64,000 nucleotides of DNA from Dictyostelium discoideum (GCA_000004695.1 CM000153.2:4512001-4576000); one strand, 5' to 3'. Shown: positions 1 to 63,849, numbered from the stretch's first letter. The notes: a model not told the origin generated them from the sequence alone. Numbers and translations: made by a program.

Positions 1-608
1 TTCAATTTCCAACTGTTTAAAGTAATTTTTAATACCACCCAATTGGACACTACCATTACCAACATTATCTACCAAATAACATTTTTCAACTTTACCTTTT
101 ATTGTGTAAACCTTAATTTTTATATGCTTTTTATAAATTTCACCATTATCATAATTTAAATCTTGATTTAATGTTGATGTTGTTGTTGTTGTAGTTGTAG
201 TTGTAGTTGTTGCTGATGATGAATTTTCTGCAGTAATAATCATTGGTATTGGTTTTGATGGTGATGATATTTGAATATTTTCTTTAATTTCTTCTTCTCC
301 TTTATTCTCTTTTATTTCTTCTTTATCAATTTGATTAGTTTCTTTAATTTGTTCTTTGTTTTCCTCTATGCTATCTTCCTTTGTATGTTGTGCCGTATCA
401 TTTTTAATTGGTTGAGGGTTTGTATCAATACAGTCATTAATATCACCTTCGTCATCATCTTCTTCATCGTCATCTTTTGATTTTATAATTGCTAATTGTA
501 AACTATGAGAACGTGATGATGATCCTCTTTTAAAATATGAGTCATGATCGCTATCAATATTTGAAAAATCTTGTGTTGTTGTTGTTTCATTATTATAGTT
601 ATTATTAC

Positions 609-702
<94 letters not shown>

Positions 703-885
703 TATTTCATCAGCACCATCATCAATGATTGGATTTGTTTTATTTACAATGACAATTAAACAAGACTCGCTGGATGATCCTAAAAAGAATGTGTTTTTTG
801 TAATATCAACTGACCCAATTCCATCATTCCCATCACTTTCTTTATTTGGTAAAATTATAATTTCACCTAAAAATGATGATGTCAT
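1..885 (-). CDS. Hypothetical Asn/Thr/acidic-rich protein, N-terminal part only (the CDS runs off the window start)
   Basis: The reverse complement from an ATG at 885..883 reads MTSSFLGEIIILPNKESDGNDGIGSVDITKNTFFLGSSSESCLIVIVNKTNPIIDDGADEINNNN... and stays open to position 1. I checked codon by codon through about 480, including the (ATT)33 tract at 601-700, which reads poly-N. The ORF track misses it because it has no stop inside the window. I recognise no conserved domain. Confidence 0.5.
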
Positions 886-1272
886 TTTTTTTTCTTTTTT
901 TTTTTTTTTTTATAAATAAATAAAGTGATAAAAAAAAAAAAAGAAAAAAAAAAAAAATAAAAAGAAATAATTGAAAAAATATAAAAAAAAAAATAAATGA
1001 AAGTGTATGAGTATTTGCAAAATAAAAAAAAAAAAAAATTAATTTTTGGGCGCAAAAAAAAAAAAAAAAAAAATAAAAAAAAAAAAAATTAAAATTAAAA
1101 ATTAATAAAATTAAATTAAAGTTCGATTTCCTAAATGGGATCGATATTTGCAATCAAATCTTATATAGTTATTTTTATTTTTTTATTTTTATTTTTTATT
1201 TATAATTTTTACATTTTTGTTTTTTTCTATTTTTATTTTTTTTTTATTTTTTTTTTGTCCCAAAATGATACT

Positions 1273-1568
1273 TTAAGAAGATTTTACTTGAATTGGATTA
1301 ATTTGGGAATATAATAAATTTGAAGCGTCAATACCTTTTAAAAATTCGACTATTTTTAGAGCAAATGGAATAGTGACACCAGCTGAAGAAGCAGTGATAA
1401 TATTTCCATCAACCACTATTGTCTGATCTAATAATTCAATTGAATCTTGCATAAATTGATTACAACCTGGAAAATGAGTTACTTTTCTACCTTTTAATAA
1501 ACCACATTTACCAAAAATTTGTGGTGCTGCACAAATTGCTGCTAAAAATCTGTTATTATTATTTTCAA

Positions 1569-1638
<70 letters not shown>

Positions 1639-1947
1639 TATTTCATTTGAATATAATAAACCAAATCTTTTAATGGCATCAATTAATTTTTGATTTGTTA
1701 ATTGTTGAACGATTCCAGGACCACCTGGAATAATTATTCCATTATAATTTGAGAGTGTTTCAATGAAATCTTGAAATTTATATTCTGTTACTAATTCAAT
1801 ATAATGTGAACCTTTAATTGATTTCTTATCATTATCAATTGAAATTAAGTCAACTCTAATATTAGCTCTTCTTAAAAGATCAAGAGTTGTTACACATTCA
1901 ATCTCTTCGAAACCATCAAAAATTATCATTGCAACCTGAATCGCCAT
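1273..1947 (-). CDS. DJ-1/PfpI (ThiJ) family protein (class I glutamine amidotransferase-like fold); single exon, 224 aa
   Basis: A complete ATG-to-stop ORF. The N-terminus MAIQVAMIIFDGFEEIE aligns with the DJ-1 MASKRALVILAKGAEEME. The nucleophile-elbow motif AAICAAPQ matches DJ-1 AAICAGP, followed by HFPGC. A 27-residue poly-Asn insert, encoded by (ATT)n at about 1569-1640, sits inside the fold. Confidence 0.85.
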
Positions 1948-2465
1948 TTTTTTTTTTTTTTTACTGTTTTTTTTTTTTTTTTTACTGTTTTTTTGAACAA
2001 CAAAATATTATTATGGAGACTGTTTTTTTTTTTTTTTTTTTTTTTATTTTTTTTATTTTTTTATTTTTATTTTTATTTTATGGTAACACACAACACCCAA
2101 GAGTCTGAAATTTAAAAAAAGAAAAAAAAAGAAAAAAAAAAAAAATAATAATAATATTAATAAAATTATTATTAAAAAAAAAAAAAATGTTTTTAAAAAG
2201 TAATTTTTTTTAAAATCTTCATTTTATTGTATTTTTTTTATTAACCGCCAGGAATTAATCTTAAAGATCTGCTAAATCTATTGCATTTTAACAAATTTAA
2301 AATGATTGGGGTATTTTTTTTTTTTTTTGGGATTTTTTAAATTTTTTTTTTTTTTTTTTTGTTACAAACCTGAAAAAAAAAAAAGGGTTTTATTTCCCTT
2401 TTCCACCTCTTTTTTTTACACAAGATTGAGTGATAAAGCAATGAAATCAAAATTTTTTTTTTTGC

Positions 2466-2508
<43 letters not shown>

Positions 2509-2561
2509 AAAAAACAAATGTAAGTGCGAGTTTACACAAATACAATCTTTTATTATTTACA

Positions 2562-2606
<45 letters not shown>

Positions 2607-2744
2607 CCTGGAACTTCTGGTTATTTTGTTGGGAAGTGGTGTTTTAAAAAAATAAATATAAGAAAAAGGAAAAAAAAATAAAATAAAAAAAAAAAAATAA
2701 TAAAAAAAAAAAACAATTGGATCGTTGGGAGGAAAACTCTTTTC

Positions 2745-4077
2745 TTATAAAATTGATTGATTGAAATCTTTGAAATAAGGATGCTTCATTGCCTCCTTTG
2801 CAGTTAATCTTTCTGTTGGATCATAACGTAATAATTTATCTAAAAAGTCAATTGCATCAGGTTGCGCAATATCATCATTTTCATATGGTATAAATCTTTC
2901 CCAATTACTTTTTTGTCGTCTATATATATATATATATATATTTAATATAAAAAAAAAAAAAAAGAAAAAAAGAAAAAGTTAATAATGATAATGATAATTG
3001 AATATTATCATTATTATTATTTTAATAAATACATACGGTTTAATTAAAGAGGATTGTTCATCAGTTAAAGATAAACCAAATTTATCCAAAAAGTTAAATA
3101 AATCATCAGTACCTAAAACTTTAACAATTTTTAATAATTGATCATTATTATTATCACCATTAAAGAAAGGATCTCTATCTAAAATCAAACCAGCGAATAA
3201 ACAACCCAATGACCACATATCTAAACTATAATCATAGTCAAACATATTCACCAATAATTCGGGTGGTTTATAATGTCTAGAGGCAACTCTAACATTATAA
3301 TTCTTACCTGGATGATAATATTCCGCTAATCCCCAATCAATTAATGATAATTTCCTCTTTGAATGATCAATTGCAATATTTAATGGTTTTATATCTCTAT
3401 GTATTATACCTTTTGAATGTGTGTAATCAATTGCCTAATAATAAAAAATAAAAATAATAATAATTAATAACCACCAATATAAATATAAATTATTTAATAA
3501 TAATAAAATTAATGATAATACTTACTTTTAATAATTCAAAAATATAATATCTAATATCATAATCATCCAATGTATAAACTAATTCTCTAATGTCAGTTTT
3601 ATTTACAAATGGGAAAACTAGACTACAAACTTTTGAAGATTGATCTTTAACTGAATCCAATAGTGGTATAATGTTTGGACCACCATTTAAACTCTCCAAT
3701 ATTTTAATTTCTCTTTGAATCTTTAATTTTTGAACTGGTTTCAAAACTTTGATTACAACTTCATCAGAGGTCTCTATATCGATACCACTAAAAACTTCAC
3801 TATATTTACCACGACCAATCTTTTGAATCACTTCATATCTATCTACATTCTTCCAATTGATACGATAACCTTCATAATCGTAATATGATTTTGGTTGATT
3901 TTCATTAACATCTCTATAAACTTTTGAAATATTTCTTAAAATTCTACCTTCCATCATATCTTCTTCAATAATTAAACCATTACCATTTTGTTGTTGTTGT
4001 TGTAACTGTTGTTGTTGTTGTAATTCTAATTGTTTTTTCTTTTCAGTTTCTTCTTGTTCTTTTCTTTGTTTTTCAAG

Positions 4078-4140
<63 letters not shown>

Positions 4141-4524
4141 TAGTAATTGCTGTTGTTGTTGTTGTAATTGTTGTTGTTGTTGAATTTGTTGTTTATTTAA
4201 AGAATGTGAAGGATTTGCATTCATAAATTCATTGATATCCTTTTCGATATCGGTTAGAGCTTGTGAACCACTTCCCATACTACCACCTAATCCACTACTA
4301 ACTGATTGGTGTAACTCTGATGTATCATATGATGAGGATTGAGTATGATGTCTTTTATTACATTTTGTGCAATCATCATTATCACTGCTATTTTTATTAT
4401 TAGATTTACCTCTTCGATTTCTAAAGTTACTATGGTGATGATGTTGTTTATTTTTAATATTACTTTTATTATCGCTATTATTATTGCTACTATTATTATT
4501 ACAATTTTCAGTTAATTTTGAATC

Positions 4525-17650: not shown

Positions 17651-19488
17651 ACAATCTTATTTTTTTTATTTTTTTTCCATTTGTATTTATTTCTGATTAT
17701 TCACTTTTAAGTTTAATAGGAAAAAAAAAACAAGTGTTTGTTTTTAATGCTTGCATCATTATGGAATACAAAAAAAAAATTGTGGCGAATAGTTTATAAC
17801 AAATTTTTAAACTACAAAAAAAAAAAAAAATAAAATTAGTATTTGTTTTGTTTATAATAATACACTATCCCAGGATAGGTTAAAAAAAAAATAAAAAAAA
17901 ATTAAAAAAAATTAAAAAAAAATTTTGGATCAAACACGACGATGACCACATGATTTTTTTAATTGTTATTTATTGGGGAGTTTATTATGAACTGTGTATT
18001 TGCATATATCATTTTCAATTCAAGTAAATTGGCAACACTAATTATTATTTTCAAATAAAAAAATAAAAAAAATAAAAAATAAAAAAATAATATGTTAAAG
18101 TAATTTACTTAACATGTCCAAAATTTAATATCTTATTAATATCAAATAATTAATAATTCGATTATTTTAATCCAAATTAATAAAAAAAAAAAAAAAAGAC
18201 AAAGATCTATTAAAATTAATTATACGTGAACATCAACAAAATTATTTGAAATTATTTTTATACAAGTATCTCTTACATCAATTTTTTTTTAAAAAAACAT
18301 AATAATAAAAATAAAAGATCTTTTAAATCGGTATAAAAAAAAAAAAAAAATTATAATATCAATGGTAAAAAATAAAAAACATTTTTTTTTTTTTTTATTT
18401 TTTTTTTTTTTAAATAAATCAACCCGAACAAATTAAAGTCGAAAATATTGGTTTTGTGTTAAAAAAAAGAGTGAGCAAAAAACGATCAGTTTTATAAAAG
18501 ACAAAAAATAAAAAAAAAAAACTATTTTTTTTGTAAATTAAACACGTGAGCTTTTCCAATGAATAGAAAAAAAAAAAAAAAAAAAATTCTAAAAGGGGAC
18601 TTGGTTTGTAGATTTTTTAATTTTCACAAGTTTATTTATGTCGTTATCATTTTTATTCAAAGATTTTATTGTTTTTGGATTTGATTTAAAGTTTTGTTTT
18701 ATTTTTTGGAATAAAAAAAAAAAAAAAAAAAAATTATTAAAAAAAAAAAAAAAAAAGATATTTTCTCTTTATTTAAAAAAAACAATTTTTTTATTAGAAT
18801 TTTTTTTCAGAGATATTTTCAAGTTTTATTTTAATGAATGAAAATCATCAAATTTAGAAAAAATGATATAAATTTGCAACTTAAATAATATTTTTTAAAT
18901 TATTTTAAATTTTTTTTTTTTTTAAAAAATATAATTAATATCTTGACAATTCCTATTATCTCTTTCTATAAATTATATTTCTGTTTTGGTTATTTTAAAG
19001 AAAGTTTTTTTTATACAAAATAGTAAAAAAATAGAAAAAAAAAAAAAAAAAAAGATTAGAAGGAACCAAAAAAAAAAAATTACAACCCATTATTTGGGTT
19101 CAAAATAAATCCAAAAAATAATTATGAGATATTAAATATTAGCCAAAATTATATTTTAGCAAAATCATTTGTAATGAGATTTTTTGAACTTATATTATTA
19201 TAAAATCTCATTTTTCATATTTACAATTTTTTTTTAAAAAAGACAATTTAAAATCATACATCTTGTTCTTTGTAGTATACTCTGAAATAATTTTTTTTTT
19301 TTTTTAAAAAAAAAATAAAAAAAAAAAAAAAACAAAATTAAATTGTGTAGACTGATTGGATTTTTTTTTTTTATTTTTTTTTTACTTTTTATTTTTTTTT
19401 TATATATCATTTGGTTTTGTTTTGTGTTTGGTTATTTCCATTTACCAAGTCAATACAAATGCTACCCCTCACACTTTTTTTTTTTTTT

Positions 19489-27634: not shown

Positions 27635-27734
27635 NNNNNNNNNNNNNNNNNNNNNNNNNNNNNNNNNNNNNNNNNNNNNNNNNNNNNNNNNNNNNNNNNN
27701 NNNNNNNNNNNNNNNNNNNNNNNNNNNNNNNNNN
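27635..27734. other. Assembly gap (100 N)
   Basis: A run of N characters. Confidence 1.
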
Positions 27735-41268: not shown

Positions 41269-43238
41269 CTAATCTCTTGGAGCACCACCATCTTCAGCTT
41301 CTAATTGTGCTCTTAATTCATTTAAATCGTGATCGTCGTCTTGAGTTGGTAAATAAAAGTATGGATTATCTAAACTTGGTCTGAATTGATAACTAAAGAT
41401 AAAATAAAATATGTAATGTCAGTACTATATTAATTTTTTTAAAATCTTAAGAAAAAAAAAAAAAAAAAAAAAAAAAAAACTTTGACTTACCCAGTAATAC
41501 AATAAAAAGCAAAAGAAGCAGTTAATGAAAAGAATTCACCTAACCAAATATATTTGTATGGAAGTGTTGCTTTTAATAAATAAATAATAACACGAGTGAA
41601 ATATAAATAACAAATTACAACCAAATAAAAGGATCTAAATAATCTTAATTTTTGAATATTTTTAACAACTAAAATAAATAAATATAATAATTAGTATAAT
41701 ATTTCTTCCATAATAATAATAATAATAAATACTAATTATTATTATTATTGATTATTAATTATTAATTATTAATTATTAATTATTAATTATTATTACCTTT
41801 ATCATTATTTGAATCAACACTATCTTTAAGATGATTCATTGACCAAACGATTGGAACAATTATAGCTAAACAACAAATTAAATCAACGAAAATGAAAATA
41901 TTACTCCAACTAATCCAATTTGCAGCACCTCTTGATTCTTCATCCACAACGATTAATGCAATATTATCTAAAATTTGTAATGGAATGACAATCATAAATA
42001 TCTTTTTCTCTTTATCTGAAAGGAAGGGTTTAATAAAATACCATCCTGATCCAATCATAGCTAAAAGAATAATGAAAAATGAACCTTGTGCAAATGCAAA
42101 TATATAATATGCTACATTCCATCCATTTGCTGATCCTGTTAATTTAATATAATGTTGTTCAATCTTTGTTGGGGAAAAAATAAAAATATTTAATATTTAA
42201 TATTAATATTAGTAATAATATTATTATTTTTAATAATTATAATTAATAATACACTTACAGCTTCAAATAATAATTCAATAGCTTGAATGACTAAATATGC
42301 TGTACAAAGATGGTGAAGTAAGTTTACTCTTTTACCCTCACCTCTGAGGCAGAATAAAACCCATACTAATGCTGTTGCAAATAATAATAATGAAAAAAAT
42401 GTATAAAGTGTTGGTAATGGAGCATTACCTATTGGGAGCCATGAAATACCTCCCTTTGAATCAATATTATATTCTTCTAAAACTAACTAAAAATATTATT
42501 ATTATTATTATTAATATTGCAAACTTTTTATTTTATATTGGATATTAGATATTAGATATACATACTTTAAAAGTTGTTTTTGAAGGTGAAGGATTACAAT
42601 TTTTATAATATAATGTATAAAAACCTTCTGGTAAATCGTTTTCAGCTGAAATTTTAAATTGTTGTGAGAATGAATCATCAATAACATTTGAATCACCTCT
42701 AAATAAGAGACTTGGACTCTCACTTTCAAAATCACATTTTGTAACACTATATTCATCTACATGTCTTGCTGTATCTGAATCTGTTATACGTAAAAAAAAT
42801 GCTACCTTATCATCTACTTTGGTTTTTTTACCATCTCCATTATTTAACTAATTGAAAAAAAAAAAATAATAAAAAAATAAAAACAAAATAAAAAAAATAA
42901 AAAAAAGTTAATAAATATACACACAAATACTCTCCCTCTCTTTCTTTCTCTTTCTCTTTCTCTTTCTCTTTCTCTTTCTCTTTCTCTTTCTCTTTCTCTT
43001 TCTCTTTCTCTTTCTCTTTCTCTCTTTTTTTTTTTTATTGAAAAAATTATATATATATAAAACTTACAGTCCAATTTGTTACTTTAATTGAGAATGTACC
43101 TTTATCACCAAAACCAAAACCTTCAATTGCAAATAATTTTCTATCATCATTATTAACTTCTAAATGATGTTTATATGCGTTTATAATTCCAAGAAATAGG
43201 AAAAATAGTACAACTATTTTATTTATATTACTTTTCAT
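41269..43238 (-). CDS. Lung-seven-transmembrane-receptor family protein (GPR107/GPR108/TMEM87-like), 6 exons, about 449 aa
   Basis: The exons are 43238..43068, 42847..42566, 42486..42259, 42163..41797, 41668..41491 and 41392..41269. The donors are GTAAGT, GTATGT, GTAAGT, GTAATA and GTAAGT, and all phases check (171+282+228+367+178+124 nt). There is a signal peptide MKSNINKIVVLFFLFLGIINA, a luminal domain, then multiple TM helices. The C-terminal part KNIQKLRLFRSFYLVVICYLYFTRVIIYLLKATLPYKYIWLGEFFSLTASFAFYCITGYQFRP matches the GPR107/108 signature (...KL.LFR.YY.l.v.YIYFTRII..LLk...PF...WL......lvFf..TGYKFRP). Confidence 0.8.
42931..43025. repeat. (CTCTTT)n hexanucleotide microsatellite of about 14 units inside intron 1 of the 7TM gene
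   Basis: Direct reading. On the minus strand it is (GAGAAA)n, which produces the spurious 'ERERER' ORF at 42844..43074. Confidence 0.9.
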
Positions 43239-43857
43239 CGTTTGTTCTAAATATATATTTTTTTCATATAAAAAAAAAAAAAAAAATTGAAAAAAAATAA
43301 AAGGAATCTTTTTTTTATTTTTTTTTTTTTTTTTAATTTTTTTTTTTTTTTTTTTTTTTTGTTTTTAATTTTAATTTTAAAATTTCTCAAAATATTGTGT
43401 TGGTTAACCTACGTCAGGTATAAGTACGATAAAAAGAAAAAAAATAAAAAAAAATATATATAAATAAAAGATAAATTTTTTTTTTTTTTTTTTATTATTG
43501 TTTTTATTTTTTTATTTTATTTTAATTTTTTTCTTATCATGTAAAAAAAAATTATTTTAAAAATAAAAAATAATAAAAAAAAAAATAAAAAAAAAATAAA
43601 AAATAAAAAAAAGATGGAAAAACACACCATCCCAATTTATATTTTTAAAATAACCAAAATTATATAATTATTAAAATTAAGATATTTTGTAATTTGGTAT
43701 AAACACCATGAAAAAAAAAAAAATAAAAAAATAAAAATATGAACCTGAAAATATTTTAAAATTTGTTGAACCTGTAAAAAATTGAGATTGTATGTCTATT
43801 TATAAAACTTAAATTAAATTAAATTTAGATTTCTTTTTTAAATATTTATTTTTTTAT

Positions 43858-44528
43858 TTATTCAAATTTACAATTTTCATAACCTTTTGATTTTAAAAAT
43901 TCTTTAACTTTTTGAAGTGAACGAGTACGATGAGAAATTGTATTTTTAATTGATTTATCCATTTCTGCATAAGTTTCTTTGTAACCATCTGGTTGGAATA
44001 CAGGGTCCCAACCGAAATTACGTGGACCACGTGGTTGTACGATGATACCATCGGTTTTACCAGCGAATACGATTGGTTCTGAATCTGGTCCTTCTGAAAA
44101 AGCGAAATTACATAATGCATATGCACTCTTATCTTCCCAAGCATCTAATAATTTATATAATCCTTCTGGTTCTAATTTATCTAAAAACCATTTAACATAT
44201 GGTCCTGGTAATCCTTTTAATGCATTAAAACATAAACATGTATCCTCAACTAATACTGGTCCTCCAACTTCTCTTGCTGCAATTTTACATTTTTCAATTG
44301 AAATATCAATTGGATCACCTTGTAATTCTGGTACTAAATATTGTTTAATTATTATTTATTATTATTATTTATTTTTTTAATGTGTTTCTTTTTTTTTTTT
44401 TAAAACAAAAATACTTTACAATCAACTTTTTTTGATTCAATTGGGAATGATGTACCTAAAATTTGTAATGCTTCTTCAAGTTTTTTTGCATTTCCTGTAA
44501 CAAAAACAATCTTTTTACTAATACTCAT
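43858..44528 (-). CDS. Inosine triphosphate pyrophosphatase (Ham1/ITPA family), 2 exons, 194 aa
   Basis: Exon 1 is 44528..44420, reading [36 protein letters not shown], with donor GATT|gtaaag. Exon 2 is 44333..43858, acceptor atatttag|TA, reading [50 protein letters not shown]...[41 protein letters not shown]. The Ham1/ITPA motifs are present (FVTGN, the WF.. segment, FGWDP.FQP.G...TYAEM....KN.ISHR). The track ORFs 43893..44144 and 44042..44380 are out-of-frame or antisense artefacts. Confidence 0.85.
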
Positions 44529-44548
44529 TTTTTACCTCTAAAAATCTG

Positions 44549-44598
<50 letters not shown>

Positions 44599-44827
44599 AT
44601 TGAAAAATTAAAAAAAAAAAAAAAAAAAAAATTGTTGGGAAAATAAAAAAAATTGGGAAATAAATCAAAAAAAGCTATTTTTATTAATTAAATAGGGTTA
44701 TGGATTGTTTATTTTCTATAAAGAAGCCAATTTGAATAAACATTTGAATAAACATTGTTTATATTCCAATATTATTCAAATTGGTTTTAAAAAAATATAA
44801 ACAAACAAATAACCTAATTCATTAATA

Positions 44828-44882
<55 letters not shown>

Positions 44883-45287
44883 ATACATTTTTTTAAAAAA
44901 AAAAAATTAAAAATAAAAATAAAAAAACTATTTTTTCTAAGATCGAAAAGAGATTATGTTTAATAAATTTCTTTTTGTAACATAAATAATTTTTTTTTTT
45001 TTGGTGTGTGAGGTAAATTCTTCTTTTAGTTAGATAGATGTCTATCTGTTTATCTGTGTGGTGCATGTGTATTTTTTTGTAAATATTATGATAACTGAAT
45101 ATACAAATGTCTGCTACCAGAAGACAAACCAACTTTTTTTTTTTATTATTATTATATGATTAAAAATTGACATGGATGGTTTGTGTGTGCACGTGTTTTT
45201 GCAAAAGTAAAATAATATTTTAAACTAACATCACTTTTTTGTGAAAGGAGATTTTAATTTAAATAACCTATAAATAGTAGATTATAA

Positions 45288-45325
<38 letters not shown>

Positions 45326-45574
45326 TTATTTATTCTGTGCACTCACAATTTTCTTTTTTTTTTTATAAATATAAATTAACTGTTTCCCCCACTCTTTTTA
45401 ATCAATTTACAAAAAAAAAAAAAAAAGATTGACAAACTTTAAAAAAAAATAAAAAATAAAAAATAAAAAAAAAATAAAATTAAAAAACACAAAAAAAAAA
45501 CAAAAAAAAAAAAAAAAATATTTTTTTTTTTCAAACCTCCATTATTCGTTTTAATTAATATATTATTCCAAAAC

Positions 45575-48349: not shown

Positions 48350-51334
<2,985 letters not shown>

Positions 51335-51676: not shown

Positions 51677-51725
<49 letters not shown>

Positions 51726-52810
51726 TGGATTAACAAGATTGATATATGCCCATCTGGGTTAAAACAAGTTTTATTTAATATTTATTTAAAGGCTTATCTT
51801 TTAAGCTGAAGGGTTATTTTAATCATATGAATTGATCAAAAAATATAATATTTGGGAAAAATGATTCTGGAATACAAAAAAAATTAGCTGTTGTTTTTCT
51901 TACCTTGATCGTTGAAGGGAAAAGGATCTTAGGATCTTTGAAGTTATTATGGCCTTTTGCTGAAAAGTTTTTCAAAACTTTTGCTTTTTTGATGAATTCA
52001 AAAGGGGCCAATTTGGGCCATTTCTTTAAAAGGGAGCTGTATGATAGGGATTCCTCTGTTAAAGGATCTTCCCTGTATATTTGATTGCAAATCCAAATCC
52101 AAATGTTGGGGAGGATAAGGGCCATTAGGTTTCTATATGCGAATGATCTGGTTAAAACATAACCTATTGCTTTATAGTTCCATTCAAAGTATCTTGTGAA
52201 TCTGTGGTGGCGTAATCTGCATTCCTTCTTGATCTTTTGGCTGTCGGTGATAATTTGGAGTTATTCTATTAATGAAATTGTTATTTGCCTAATTCTTGTA
52301 TGGTGCCAGTTTTTACCTTTGCCTGTGGTGATATAGATGAAATTTTTGAGTTTATTTATTTTTATGAATTGTTTTGTCTTCTTGCATGAGAAGAACAGGT
52401 GACCGTATGGGTCTTTGCTCATATCTTCTTTGCAGAGTGGGCATTGTTTGTTGTGAAGGTAGTTTATTGGAAGGCATCTGGCATGGAATCTAAACATTGT
52501 GTCTCTTGTTTTAGGGTCTTTTATCTTCAGTATGTTGTTGAAGAGTTGATTATAGCTGTAGCCTCTTAAGTTTAGAGATGATTGGAATTCCGTTTTAGGG
52601 ATGGTTGGATTTTGGTCTTGAATTGTAGTATACCATTCTGCCAGTGAAAGTGGTTGTCCATTTTCGTTTTTTATGGATGTGAGATTATTGTTGAAGATTG
52701 CTTTTTTTATTCTTATTTTGTTCCATTCGTCTAAGTTTTCTTTTAGGTATCTGGATGTGAATTTGTTTTTTTGGATCTGATATTCCCAGCTTTTTTTTTT
52801 TTTTTTTTTT
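51677..52810 (-). mobile_element. Degenerate tandem second copy (copy B) of the same non-LTR 3' portion, with its own poly(A) tail
   Basis: The block 51721-52790 is colinear with 52811-53900 at roughly 90-95% identity. It begins aatattggattaacaagattgatatatgcccatctg... where copy A begins aatattggattaacaagattgatatatgtccatctg.... Frameshifts split its ORF into the 51823..52125 and 52261..52497 pieces. T44 on + at 51677-51720 is the poly(A) tail. The junction with copy A falls directly after ...tattcccagc. Confidence 0.55.
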
Positions 52811-54479
52811 AATATTGGATTAACAAGATTGATATATGTCCATCTGTGTTAATACGAGTTTTTATTTAATATTTATTTATAGGCTTATCATTTAAGCTGA
52901 AGGGTTATTTTAATCATATGAATTGATCAAAAGATATAATATTTGGGAGAGATGATTCTGGAATACAATAGTAATTAGCTGTTGTTTTTCTTAGCTTGAT
53001 CGTTGAGGTGAGAAGGATCTTAGGATCTTTGAAATTATTATGGTCTTTTGCTGATAAGTTTTTCAGATCTTTTGCTTTTTTGATGTATTCTAGAGTGGCC
53101 AATTTGTGCCATTTCTTTAGAAGGGAGCTGTATGATAATGATTCATTTGTTAAAGGATCTTCACTGTATATTTGATTGCAAATCCAAATCCAAATGTTGT
53201 GGAGGATAAGGGCCATTAGGTTTCTATATGCGAATGATCTGGTTAGATCATAGTCTATTGCTTTATAGTTCCATTCAAAGTATTCTTTGTGGAATCTGTG
53301 GTTGGCGTAATCTGCATTCACTTCTTGATCTTTTTTGGCTGTCGGTGATAATTTTGGAGTTATTCTATTAATGAAATTGTTATTTTGCCTAATTCTTGTA
53401 TGATGCCAGTTTTTACCTTTGCCTGTGGTAATATAGATGAAATTTTTGAGTTTATTTATTTTTATGAATTGTTTTGTTTTCTTGCATGAGAAGAACAGGT
53501 GACCGTATGGGTCTTTGCTCATATCTTCTTTGCAGAGTGGGCATTGTTTGTTGTGAAGGTAGTTTATTGGAAGGCATCTGGCATGGAATCTAAACATTGT
53601 GTCTCTTGTTTTAGGGTCTTTTATCTTCAGTATGTTGTTGAAGAGTTGATTATAGCTGTAGCCTCTTAAGTTTAGAGATGATTGGAATTCCGTTTTAGGG
53701 ATGGTTGGATTTTGGTCTTGAATTGTGGTATACCATTCTGCCAGTGAAAGTGGTTGTCCATTTTCGTTTTTTATGGATGTGAGATTATTGTTGAAGATTG
53801 CTTTTTTGATTCTTATTTTGTTCCATTCGTCTAAGTTTTCTTTTAGGTATCTGGATGTGAATTTGTTTTTTTGGATTTGATATTCCCAGCTTTTGTGATG
53901 AGATGAGTTTGTTTGTTTGGTTTCTAGTGCTAGGATGAATTGGTTTATGATCCAAAGTTTCTGCGCCAGTTGTCTCAATTCTATATTCCAAATGTTCCAG
54001 CCCCCTACTTTTAGTGGGTATCTTGCTCTTTTGGTTCTCATTAAATTAATAACTTGAAATCCACTAGCATTTTTGTTGTTTGGTGCCGATAAAAACCATT
54101 CGACTAATTTATTGATTTGGTTTAATTCCTCTTCCTTAAAGTTCTCTACATATGAATAGTAGGTTAATTTAGAGAGTGCGAATGCTTTGAGGATGTTGGT
54201 TTTGGTTTTGATTGTTGAGTCAGTGGTTTTCCATAGTACTAAGGATGATCTTATTGTGTTTAATATTTCTGGCATTTTTCTTGTTATCCCTTTGCCTGTG
54301 AAGAAGTATCCCAAGTATCTTTCTGGATTTGTAGATATTGGAATTCTTTGGTTGGTATTGTCTGGGTTGCCTATAAGAATTGATGAAGATTTGTCGATGT
54401 TTAGTTTTGAGGAAGTGGCTTTGCAAAATGAATTGAAGTGTTGTAGTACTAATTCAAGTTGTTAAAGTCTGGGACCATT
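52811..54479 (-). mobile_element. Non-LTR (LINE/TRE-like) retrotransposon 3' portion, copy A, truncated at the assembly gap. It contains the ORF2 C-terminal region and the 3' end with a poly(A) tail.
   Basis: The minus-strand ORF 54314..52914 (466 aa) has a Cys/His motif CPLCKEDMSKDPYGHLFFSC (C-x2-C-x10-H-x4-C) of the kind found near the C-terminus of non-LTR ORF2 proteins. The element ends, on the minus strand, ...caatcttgttaatccaatatt followed by A25, which appears as T25 on + at 52786-52810. No RT motifs lie within the window, so they would sit beyond the gap at 54480. I have not assigned a family (TRE5 versus TRE3). Confidence 0.55.
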
Positions 54480-54579
54480 NNNNNNNNNNNNNNNNNNNNN
54501 NNNNNNNNNNNNNNNNNNNNNNNNNNNNNNNNNNNNNNNNNNNNNNNNNNNNNNNNNNNNNNNNNNNNNNNNNNNNNNN
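54480..54579. other. Assembly gap (100 N) inside the transposon cluster
   Basis: A run of N characters. Confidence 1.
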
Positions 54580-56230
54580 TACAATTACTCACTATCCAGT
54601 AGCTTCACCATCAACTACAATTTTACCAAGAGTCTTACCATCAAGATCAAATCAAACATCTAATGTTTCACCAGCTACAACAATTCAACCACCAAATTCA
54701 TCAAGTTCAAATCAATCATCAAATATCCCACCAACAACAAACCAATCATCAAATATTACAAATCAACCAATAAATACTTCATCAATGAATTTAAATCAAT
54801 CATTATCAAATCCACCATCTCTTATTACAAATCAAGCAACAACCGCTAGATTATTGAATAGTGTACCTATCTCAATCAACAATGATAATATTAATACAAC
54901 AATTCCACAATTTACACAAGAGTCAATAAGAAAAGAGTTGGAAAAAGAAAATTATTATAGAGCAATGTATAAATATCTTGAAGAAACAAGACTTCCAGAC
55001 AATGCACAAGCAGCAAGAAGAATTTTGTTGGAGTCTGAATTTTATTCAATGATTAATGGATTTCTTTGTCACGGTTTAAAACATACTTTATCAAGTAAGA
55101 AATCTCATTTTAAACATCTTCAAATTGTAGTTCCAAAAACTATGACTAAATGGATAATGGAAATATTTCATGATTCGCCACTTACTGGAGGACATTTTGG
55201 ATTATTAAAAACTGTTGCAAAAATCAAAGAAAGATTCTATTGGATTGGTATGATTAAGGATATAAAAGAATTTATCGATAAATGTACAACTTGTTTACAA
55301 ATTAAAAGAAAGTATGGTCCAAAAGAAGGTTTACTCATTCCAATTGAGATTGAACCTGAACCATTTAATACAATTGGTATTGATTTTATTGGTCCAATTA
55401 CAAAAGATAATGCTCAAGTTTATTTGTTGGTTGTTATGGATTATTTTACTAAATGGCCAGAAGTTTTCTTTACCCTTGATATGGAAGGGGAGACTGTAGC
55501 TCAATTATTGTTGTATGAAATCTATACTAGATATGGGGTTCCAAAGAAGTTGGTTTCTGATCGTGGTAAGAATTTTTTTAAGTAATGTAGTCTCTGGTGT
55601 TAATAAATTATTCGGTGTTCACAAATTAACAACTACTGCTTATCACCCACAATGTGATGGTCAAACTGAAAATTTCAATAATACATTAATTAAGATGCTC
55701 AAAGCTTTTATTGGTAATGAATTGTATGGCAATTGGGGTGAATTATTAAGATGTGTTTTATACTCATACAGAATTACACCACATGTTTCAACTGGTTTTT
55801 CACCCTTTTTCTTACTTTTTAATCGTCAACCAACTTTACCATTAGATACAACTTTAAATGTAAATTTTTATTCAAATTCACTAAGATTAGATTTCGCTGA
55901 TAATTATGCACAATCCGTAAATAATAATCTTAAACGTGCCTTTTGGTTTACAAAGAATAATCTCGATAAAGCTCAAGAATTACAAAAAACAAATTATGAT
56001 AAAGGTCGTCGTCCAACAAATATTCAAACAGGTGATTTTGTTTATTTACATACACCATATTCACAAACTTCTATTGGTCCAAAGAAATTCTATAAACCTT
56101 GGAGAGGTCCTTTTAAAGTTCAAGAAAAAGTTAGCGATGTTACATTCAAATTAGATATGGGTAATCTTAGAGATCATAAAGTAGTCAATATTGAAAGATT
56201 GAAAAAAATTTTCAACTAAAAGGGGGGGAT
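54580..56230 (+). mobile_element. Ty3/gypsy-type LTR retrotransposon, pol 3' part (integrase), 5'-truncated at the gap, frameshifted. It resembles DGLT-A or Skipper.
   Basis: The frame is open from the gap edge (the track ORF 54785..55585 is its ATG-started tail). It reads the integrase HHCC zinc finger (H..KH..........LQIVVP.....C..C) and the DDE core (IGIDFIGP...VYLLVVMDYFTKWPEVF...LVSDRGKNFF). Around 55575, within a T7 run, a frameshift moves reading into the 55515..56219 frame: KLFGVHKLTTTAYHPQCDGQTENFNNTLIKML...WRGPFKVQEKVSDVTFKLDMGNLRDHKVVNIERLKK, the GPF/Y integrase C-terminal module, with no chromodomain. The element ends with the polypurine tract AAAAGGGGGGGA at 56219-56230. Confidence 0.75.
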
Positions 56231-56560
56231 ATGTAATAAAGTTACTCTATAAAATTAATAGATATTAAATATGCATATTACATTACTAATTATAGTTGAC
56301 ACACATTTAAATAATATAATAATAATAATAATAATAATACTGTCAACTCATTATGAATAATATAAATACTAAAGAATAATTTTATAAACAATATCGAATA
56401 TTATAAATATAAACTAATATTAAATAAAGATAACAAAGTATTATTCAATTATATAATTATTAATTATATATATTTATAAAGCTAACAAGCTTTATTACAT
56501 TAATTGTAATTATAGAAAAATTTATATCGTTAAAATTAAAAATTATAAAAAAGAAAAAGT
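56231..56560 (+). repeat. Putative 3' LTR of the gypsy-type element; its 3' boundary is not determinable
   Basis: It starts immediately after the PPT with TATGTAATAAAG.... There is no second LTR copy in the window to align against, so the 3' end is a guess. Confidence 0.3.
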
Positions 56561-56747: not shown

Positions 56748-56788
<41 letters not shown>

Positions 56789-57875: not shown

Positions 57876-58224
57876 TTTTTTTTTTTAATTTAATTATAAT
57901 TTTATTTTTTGTAATATTATTAAAAGTATTATTATTATTATTATTGTTGTTGTTGTTGTTGTTGTTGTTTTTGTAGTATTTATAAAAAAATAAAAATAAA
58001 AATAAAAAAAAAAAGTATTATTAATACACTTTTTTTTTTTTTTTTTTTTTTTTTTTGGCAATTCCCACCAAAAAATATAAAATAATTAATTTTAATTATT
58101 TCTTTTTAGTGAAAATTAAATAAATTTTTATTTTATCTTTAATTCAATAATTTCGTAGTTATTTTACAAATAATTTAATACCCACATATGGGTGAATTAA
58201 TTTATTTGTTGAAAAAGTGTTTAG

Positions 58225-58272
<48 letters not shown>

Positions 58273-58618
58273 ATAATTAAAAAAGTGTGGTTTATTTAAA
58301 ATAATTAAAAGGTTGTGGAATTAACATTGATAAACGAAATTTAAAAGAAACCATTTTTTTTTTTCTTTTTATTTATTTTTAAGAATAATCTTTTATTTTT
58401 TTTATTTTATTTATTTTTTTTTTTTTTTTTTATTTTTTATTTTTTTGTTTTATAAAATGTTTGGATTTTTAAATTGTTTTAATCATAAATTAGTAAATGA
58501 AATTTGAGTTAACTCATGAATTTAATAGAGAGAAATCCCTTACTATAAAACCATTTCCATTTATTACTTTTGAGAGGAAAAAAAAATATAAAAAAAAAAA
58601 AAAAAAAACTATTTCCGG

Positions 58619-58654
<36 letters not shown>

Positions 58655-63804: not shown

Positions 63805-63849
<45 letters not shown>

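Follow-up and report, generated by a model that had tools for sequence, protein, structure and literature searches.

Retrotransposon copies at an assembly gap of Dictyostelium discoideum chromosome 4 are very probably the outer edges of a tRNA-gene landing pad

In the window analyzed here, a stretch of 64,000 nucleotides of extremely AT-rich DNA from chromosome 4 of the Dictyostelium discoideum AX4 reference, positions 51,677 to 56,560 hold two tandem copies of a non-long terminal repeat (non-LTR) retrotransposon, a 100-N assembly gap, and the 3' end of a Ty3/gypsy element on the opposite strand. How did these elements come to lie side by side, and what does the gap between them conceal? Our answer, which we hold to be very probable, is that the region shows both outer margins of a 'landing pad' at a tRNA gene, a pile-up of three tRNA-targeted retrotransposon classes round a single tRNA-Arg(ACG) gene. 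The identities of the elements, their tails and junctions, a frameshift in the Ty3/gypsy integrase, the colinearity of a second assembly, and in that assembly the tRNA gene and its distances from the elements were all read directly from the sequences. The open reading frames (ORFs) of the window match D. discoideum AX4 proteins. One gene model, DDB_G0286503, is described as 'partial', begins exactly at the right edge of the gap, and reproduces the integrase translation of the window with an artificial intron across the frameshift; the window is therefore the published AX4 reference.

Elements at the two edges of the gap

Left of the gap, two direct copies of one non-LTR element, here called A and B, lie head to tail on the minus strand, as a first-pass annotation of the window had described. 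That annotation had made its reading depend on an alignment over about 1 kb, and the two copies align over approximately 1,070 bp without large gaps. On the minus strand, both finish with the identical 3' terminus …CAATCTTGTTAATCCAATATT, which is followed by a homopolymer tail. Homopolymer runs of at least 12 nt are ubiquitous in the window, according to a homopolymer scan; the two tails are meaningful because they are placed exactly at the ends of the repeat units. Each copy thus has its own poly(A), as had been claimed, albeit with lengths of T43 and T20 on the plus strand rather than T44 and T25. The tail of copy A joins the truncated 5' end of copy B directly (…A20/GCTGGGAATATC…), with no target-site duplication between them.

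Copy A consists of a 3' untranslated region (UTR; 52811–52913), the stop codon of ORF2 (52914–52916), and about 520 visible C-terminal ORF2 codons, and it is cut by the gap (54480–54579), as the first-pass annotation had reported. Its ORF stays open up to the gap, apart from an in-frame stop five codons from the edge. In the second assembly, copy A is 3,279 bp long and carries a 1,060-codon ORF. ORF2 of copy A contains a Cys/His motif of the form CX2CX10HX4C and is 99% identical to D. discoideum proteins with a reverse transcriptase (RT) domain, for example, DDB_G0285835; RVT_1 was found in the orthologous 1,060-amino acid (aa) ORF (1.5e-33) and also in a 99%-identical paralogue (P0001). Relatives of this ORF2 in other Dictyostelium species are 46–63% identical. 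Of the domain order APE – RT – zinc finger that marks TRE3 ORF2, the endonuclease had no Pfam match in the copy A ORF; copy A is truncated within the N-terminal region. These features agree with the earlier assignment to a Dictyostelium TRE-type non-LTR element, and derivation of the Cys/His ORF from a host gene family was ruled out, as the ORF is an RT-bearing, multi-copy ORF2.

Right of the gap, on the plus strand, the 3' part of a pol gene comprises a Ser/Thr/Asn-rich linker and an integrase and is followed by a polypurine tract and an LTR. The first-pass annotation had recognized this succession correctly, except that the LTR ends at 56499 and not at 56560. The integrase has an H2C2 zinc finger, an rve core, a GPF motif, and a short C-terminal extension without a chromodomain; Pfam returned Integrase_H2C2 (1.3e-18), rve (1.1e-09), Integrase_p58_C, and SH3_Tf2-1 on the plus-strand ORF and no chromo domain, and 34 residues lie between the GPF motif and the stop. 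Published DGLT-A has no chromodomain, a 32-aa extension after the GPY/F motif, and an LTR of 265 bp (Spaller et al. 2016, PMC5006619). In addition, IQTGDFVYLHTPYSQTSIGPKKFYKPWRGPFKVQEK and …YHPQCDGQTENFNNTL of the window match the Dd_DGLT-A rows in Figs S1 and S2 of PMC5006619, allowing for noise from optical character recognition. Skipper, the other candidate considered, is described in the literature as having a chromodomain in a C-terminal integrase extension of about 183 aa and LTRs of 390 bp (Skipper-1) and 208 bp (Skipper-2); it was ruled out on the missing chromodomain, the 34-aa extension, and the 268-bp LTR of the element in the window. The integrase is frameshifted in a T7 run (55573–55579), which the first-pass annotation had also reported; the frameshift is real, and the second assembly has the identical run.

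The locus in a second assembly

We retrieved the orthologous locus from another D. discoideum assembly (GCA_054883475.1, record CM142510.1; L002 and similar labels denote the stretches retrieved from it) by exact-protein look-ups with the flanking ORF, which we take to be a chloride-channel gene, and two downstream genes. Up to either edge of the gap, the second assembly runs colinear with the window, matching it over 7,490 bp (99.25% identity) to the left and 9,422 bp (99.72%) to the right, with about six substitutions in 20 kb when homopolymer lengths are set aside. In place of the 100 Ns it has 16,724 bp, which contain the rest of copy A, a third copy of the same non-LTR element (copy C), the tRNA-Arg(ACG) gene, three tandem TRE5-A copies within the 5' LTR of DGLT-A, the primer-binding site (PBS), and the gag, protease (PR), RT, and RNase H (RNH) regions of DGLT-A (Table 1). 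We infer that the AX4 gap holds the same content. Insofar as the colinear second assembly stands in for AX4, ARAGORN and Rfam (57.9 bits) bear out the earlier suggestion of a tRNA gene in or beside the gap, and no tRNA gene was found in the window itself by ARAGORN, by Rfam at its gathering threshold, or by blastn with the orthologous tRNA region. By contrast, the elements do not abut, as the first-pass annotation had it, since 16.7 kb lie between them in the second assembly.

The arrangement round the tRNA gene follows the targeting rules of three retrotransposon classes. According to the literature, TRE3 elements insert 40–150 bp downstream of tRNA genes (14–305 bp across subfamilies) in the same orientation, guided by an internal or external B box; TRE5 elements insert approximately 40–54 bp upstream in the opposite orientation; and DGLT-A inserts 13–33 bp upstream. 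In the second assembly, copies A, B, and C all lie 3' of the tRNA-Arg(ACG) gene and are co-oriented with it, the nearest at 88 nt, whereas TRE5-A lies 47 bp and DGLT-A 14 bp away, in accord with all three rules. Two more loci, L009 (tRNA-Thr) and L001, have copies of the same non-LTR family downstream of a tRNA gene and in its orientation. Because of this placement here and at the two other loci, we assign the family to TRE3 and not to TRE5. TRE5 was also tried for copies A and B and ruled out, as the copies are on the wrong side of the tRNA gene and in the wrong orientation, and the TRE5-A of the locus differs from them in sequence. The TRE3 copy at L009 (5651–9903), downstream of tRNA-Thr(TGT), is internally deleted: its ORF1 (369 codons) is almost contiguous with the part of ORF2 that encodes RT, and the two were called as one gene with a product of 1,221 aa.

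The TRE5-A copies have inferred sizes of 5,838, 4,890, and 747 bp, and two of them are 100% identical over 2,475 bp. They show tandem 5' repeats of about 200 bp that resemble the A-module, a B-module-like segment at both ends, a 444-aa ORF1 product (about 51 kDa), and oligo(A) ends. A 15-bp target duplication (ATAAAATTAATAGAT) is regenerated between the copies, which therefore were inserted repeatedly at the same nucleotide. When the TRE5-A block and one duplication are removed, the reconstructed 5' LTR of DGLT-A equals the 3' LTR in 268 of 268 positions. The published PBS, TGGCGACATCGTCTTTC, lies 2 bp past the left LTR in the orthologous locus, and its position falls inside the gap in the window. 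In the second assembly, DGLT-A totals 5,037 bp, with an internal region of 4,501 bp whose ORF carries PR-RT-RNH-IN (IN, integrase) and is broken solely by the T7 frameshift, into 1,243 and 239 codons. What the first-pass annotation called an 'integrase fragment' is thus the visible end of a structurally full-length element in the second assembly. As judged from its sequence, this copy appears to be structurally full length and to be partial in AX4 only through the gap. In the literature, the DGLT-A consensus is 5,054 bp, and every non-solo DGLT-A copy of the AX4 assembly falls short of full length; contrary to that count, the AX4 gap may hide one. The element is flanked by …TTTAA/LTR…LTR/TTAAT, a possible 4-bp TTAA duplication, which carries little weight in DNA so rich in A and T.

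Comparison of the two assemblies also bears on the apparent age of copy B. The letters of the window give A and B an identity of 99% over the 5' 520 nt and approximately 90% over the 3' 550 nt, with six indels, and by these letters the downstream copy is indeed the more decayed, as the first-pass annotation stated. In the second assembly, the A-to-B alignment that this annotation had proposed gives a uniform 98.9%, which we take as the true identity. Twelve B-specific sites are common to both assemblies and hence real. The 44 differences of copy B that are private to AX4 (35 substitutions and nine one-base deletions) all fall within 51749–52283 and are absent from the second assembly. As many as 33 of the 35 substitutions copy the adjacent base, against a random expectation of 13.9 ± 2.9 (maximum 24 in 2,000 trials); such neighbor-copying is the signature of poor Sanger base calls. 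Because the private differences are absent from the second assembly and carry this signature, the excess decay is probably for the most part a base-calling artefact of the reference and not a matter of age, and real decay of copy B was rejected. The in-frame stop of copy A near the gap edge falls together with contig-end differences at two positions, 54404 and 54463. Clustered low-quality calls there and in 51749–52283 probably account for spurious frameshifts in copy B and a spurious stop codon beside the gap. A 100-aa ORF peculiar to the AX4 form of copy B had no entry in an index of contig proteins, from which the AX4 gene models P0012 and P0001 were likewise absent.

Nearly all other differences between the assemblies are length changes of long A/T runs, by up to 20 nt, which could be real polymorphism or reflect assembly or sequencing uncertainty in homopolymers. 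The window has a second 100-N gap at 27635–27734, which long T runs border on either side in an AT-rich intergenic stretch; homopolymers, not a repeat cluster, seem to be behind it.

Table 1. Features of the locus in the window and in GCA_054883475.1 (locations beginning with L)
Feature	Location	Strand	Evidence or remark
Flanking ORF, 994 aa, long poly-Asn tracts	48350–51334		Protein 100% identical in second assembly; presumably a chloride-channel gene
Poly(A) tail of copy B	51678–51720	-	T43 on plus strand; T31 in second assembly; directly after conserved 3' terminus
Copy B, TRE3-type non-LTR, 5'-truncated, 1,070 bp: ORF2 C-terminus and 3' UTR	51721–52790	-	Whole length aligns to copy A
Probable base-calling errors in reference, inside copy B	51749–52283	.	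44 private differences, neighbor-copying
Cys/His motif CPLCKEDMSKDPYGHLFFSC of ORF2, copy B	52384–52443	-	Translation
Poly(A) tail of copy A	52791–52810	-	T20 on plus strand; T19 in second assembly
Copy A, visible part, runs on into gap	52811–54479	-	ORF/translation
Cys/His motif CX2CX10HX4C (CPLCKEDMSKDPYGHLFFSC) of ORF2, copy A	53484–53543	-	Translation
100-N assembly gap	54480–54579	.	16,724 bp in GCA_054883475.1
DGLT-A (Ty3/gypsy) pol 3' part: Ser/Thr/Asn-rich linker and integrase	54580–56219	+	Stop codon 56217–56219
T7 run with +1 frameshift in integrase core	55573–55579	+	Three-frame translation; T6 would restore …SDRGKNFLSNVVSGVN… (published DGLT-A sequence)
Polypurine tract AAAAGGGGGGGA	56218–56229	+	2 nt upstream of right LTR
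DGLT-A 3' LTR, 268 bp, TG…CA	56232–56499	+	Boundaries from 5'/3' LTR comparison
Homopolymer-length differences from second assembly	41452–45502, 51678–51689, 56752–56757, 58030–58624, 63821–63826		
Tail of B	L002 13329–13359		T31
Copy B	L002 13360–14438		
Tail of A	L002 14439–14457		T19
Copy A	L002 14458–17736		1,060-codon ORF with RVT_1
20-nt inverted piece of TRE3 element	L002 17737–17756		Inside gap of window
GGTACC	L002 17755–17760		
Tail of C	L002 17761–17785		T25
Third TRE3 copy C, 283 bp	L002 17786–18068		
GGTACC, second occurrence	L002 18069–18074		
External B-box-like GGTTCGACTC	L002 about 18112–18126		Between tRNA and copy C
tRNA-Arg(ACG)	L002 18157–18230	-	ARAGORN; Rfam RF00005, 57.9 bits
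14-bp spacer			Between tRNA-Arg and DGLT-A LTR
First 32 bp of DGLT-A LTR	L002 18245–18276		
DGLT-A in second assembly	L002 18245–18276 with L003 2724–7743		3' part is window 54580–56499
Three tandem TRE5-A in DGLT-A 5' LTR	L002 18277–22985 plus L003/L006 (R 1–4351)		Inside gap of window
TRE5-A sequence, 11,475 bp			Followed by rest of LTR, PBS TGGCGACATCGTCTTTC 2 bp later, 4,501-bp internal region, and 268-bp 3' LTR (window 56232–56499)

Order of insertion and competing explanations

We propose that a single minus-strand tRNA-Arg(ACG) gene, in the gap, would have been hit repeatedly by all three tRNA-targeted retrotransposon classes of the species. Each new TRE3 copy would land between the tRNA gene and the preceding copy. 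The copies, each 5'-truncated and with a poly(A) tail, would thereby line up head to tail outward from the tRNA gene as C, A, and B, the last two of which are seen in the window. On the other side of the tRNA gene, DGLT-A would have integrated 14 bp upstream, and three TRE5-A insertions would have followed at about 47 bp upstream, a point 32 bp into the 5' LTR of DGLT-A. For the TRE3 side, the most economical reading is that B was inserted before A and A before C, with A and B being separate events. Copy C is flanked by a duplication, GGTACC(TTT), and for this reason is an independent insertion at the 5' boundary of an older array. Of the 12 sites that distinguish copy A from copy B, most are polymorphic among the copies of the family, with B resembling the L009 copy and A the L001 copy. 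Because these variants mark lineages to which other copies of the family also belong, A and B stem from different source RNAs. The first-pass annotation had offered either successive insertions or a template-jump duplication. Successive insertion is documented behavior, as TRE tandems arise from sequential targeting of one tRNA gene (Spaller et al.); a jump back onto the same template was ruled out by the different lineage variants of A and B, which likewise exclude a duplication at the DNA level.

Several observations weigh against the landing-pad reading or narrow it. The tRNA gene and the other gap content are visible solely in GCA_054883475.1, and the AX4 gap may differ from it in detail because TRE5-A is active in laboratory strains. 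The count of three TRE5-A copies is partly arithmetic, as 2,415 bp of the block (CM142510.1 944988–947402) lie outside the retrieved sequence, and the assignment of copies A and B reaches the TRE3 family but not subfamily A, B, C, or D, the matching database proteins all being named 'hypothetical'. More pointedly, A and B are joined without a target-site duplication or target DNA between them; the C/A junction is closer to what two independent insertions typically leave. At the 5' end of copy A, the second assembly has an inverted 20-mer, ATCTCATCACAAAAGCTGGG, which corresponds exactly to the truncation point of copy B: it is the element's own sequence across that point, and it overlaps the flanking GGTACC by 2 nt. 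A simple sequential model does not predict this piece. The arrangement resembles a twin-priming footprint, and without copy A it would be a classic twin-priming product. It is plausible, alternatively, that A was inserted later precisely at the inversion junction, where the primed strand reads TTTT/A.

The junction can also be explained by one composite event of target-primed reverse transcription that produced copies A and B and the inverted 20-nt piece together instead of two insertions, an explanation that we regard as unlikely. By this account, the first strand would be copied from the poly(A) of one RNA to the site of a second primer, the other target strand ending in …GGTACC (twin priming); with the help of TTTT/poly(A) microhomology, RT would then jump to the tail of a second TRE3 RNA and copy 3.3 kb, giving copy A, whose end would finally be joined to the short twin-primed cDNA. 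Such an event would account for the 5' end of copy B (…AAAA/GCTGGG…) adjoining the tail of copy A without a target-site duplication. The inverted ATCTCATCACAAAAGCTGGG represents the sense sequence exactly across the B truncation point with a 2-nt overlap with GGTACC, as expected of priming from the flank, and what remains after subtraction of A and its tail is a textbook twin-priming product with a 6–10-nt junction duplication. Against it, the different lineage-diagnostic variants in A and B demand two RNAs in one integration complex, and the inversion junction, which reads CCCAGCTTTT/ATCTC on the primed strand, offers a TTTT/A-type site whose distance from the tRNA gene is the preferred one, where a later independent insertion is also plausible. 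Moreover, the duplications at copy C and at the TRE5-A copies demonstrate independent insertions at this very locus, tandems are as a rule documented to be sequential, and the inverted piece is present in one assembly only. If the composite event were true, template switching between RNAs would be a route to head-to-tail TRE tandems beside repeated targeting.

Two further explanations fare far worse. The tandem might be an assembly artefact in which reads of dispersed TRE3 copies were wrongly stacked beside the gap; the region does adjoin a gap and contains a low-quality stretch, and TRE3 is multi-copy. However, B and A follow each other in the same way in an independent, gap-free assembly, which also has the A20/GCTGGG junction, the unique flank on the left, and the 12 variants specific to B, and copy A is 100% identical in both assemblies over the 1,082 bp compared, so that we give this explanation very little chance. 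A local DNA-level duplication of a single TRE3 insertion, by unequal crossing-over or replication slippage, would fit two adjacent, co-oriented copies of 98.9% identity, yet its probability seems to us close to nil: the unit is bounded by a poly(A) that meets the truncated 5' end of an element, a mark left by retrotransposition and not by DNA duplication; the tails are of unequal length; A and B are told apart by lineage variants that recur at other loci rather than by random later mutations; and no duplicated flanking DNA accompanies the repeat.

Consequences for the reference and comparison with known elements

The nominal 100-N gap of AX4 probably conceals about 16.7 kb, in which lie the tRNA-Arg gene, the third copy of TRE3, the three of TRE5-A, and the greater part of a structurally full-length DGLT-A. 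Roughly 535 bp of the reference (51749–52283) appear to be low-quality calls that mimic an old, decayed element. Dating of insertions and counts of tRNA genes and full-length DGLT-A copies made from the AX4 assembly would mislead at this locus.

The inverted piece finds its closest parallel in the 5' inversions of human L1, which Ostertag and Kazazian reportedly described as 'twin priming' in 2001. The likeness lies in a short inverted 5' segment derived from RNA just upstream of the truncation point, a small junction duplication, and microhomology with the flank; in contrast, the piece here is only 20 nt long, is parted from copy B by the whole of copy A, and occurs in the second assembly only. 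The Ty3/gypsy element is like known DGLT-A in its integrase residues, the absence of a chromodomain, the short extension after the GPF motif, the polypurine tract before the right LTR, and the spacing of the PBS. Its LTR is 268 bp compared with 265 bp and its total length 5,037 bp compared with 5,054 bp for the consensus, and this copy differs further by the +1 frameshift in the integrase core and by a 5' LTR that, in the second assembly, is split by 11.5 kb of TRE5-A. The TRE5-A (DRE) copies of the locus are like the known element in their position about 47 bp upstream of the tRNA gene, opposite orientation, modules, ORF1, and 15-bp target-site duplications, and differ in being present at this locus in the gap only, outside the resolved sequence of the window. 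Copies A and B share with the TRE3 family (TRE3-A/Tdd-3, TRE3-B, TRE3-C, and TRE3-D; L1 clade) the poly(A) tail, frequent 5' truncation, an RT followed by a Cys/His zinc finger, and tandems at tRNA genes. No structural difference from the family was seen; the A/B junction here is without a target-site duplication, and copy A has the 20-nt inverted, self-derived piece at its 5' end in the second assembly. Taken together, these comparisons indicate that the locus is a case of known elements behaving in a known way, that is, of textbook tRNA-targeted retrotransposition as already known from this species.

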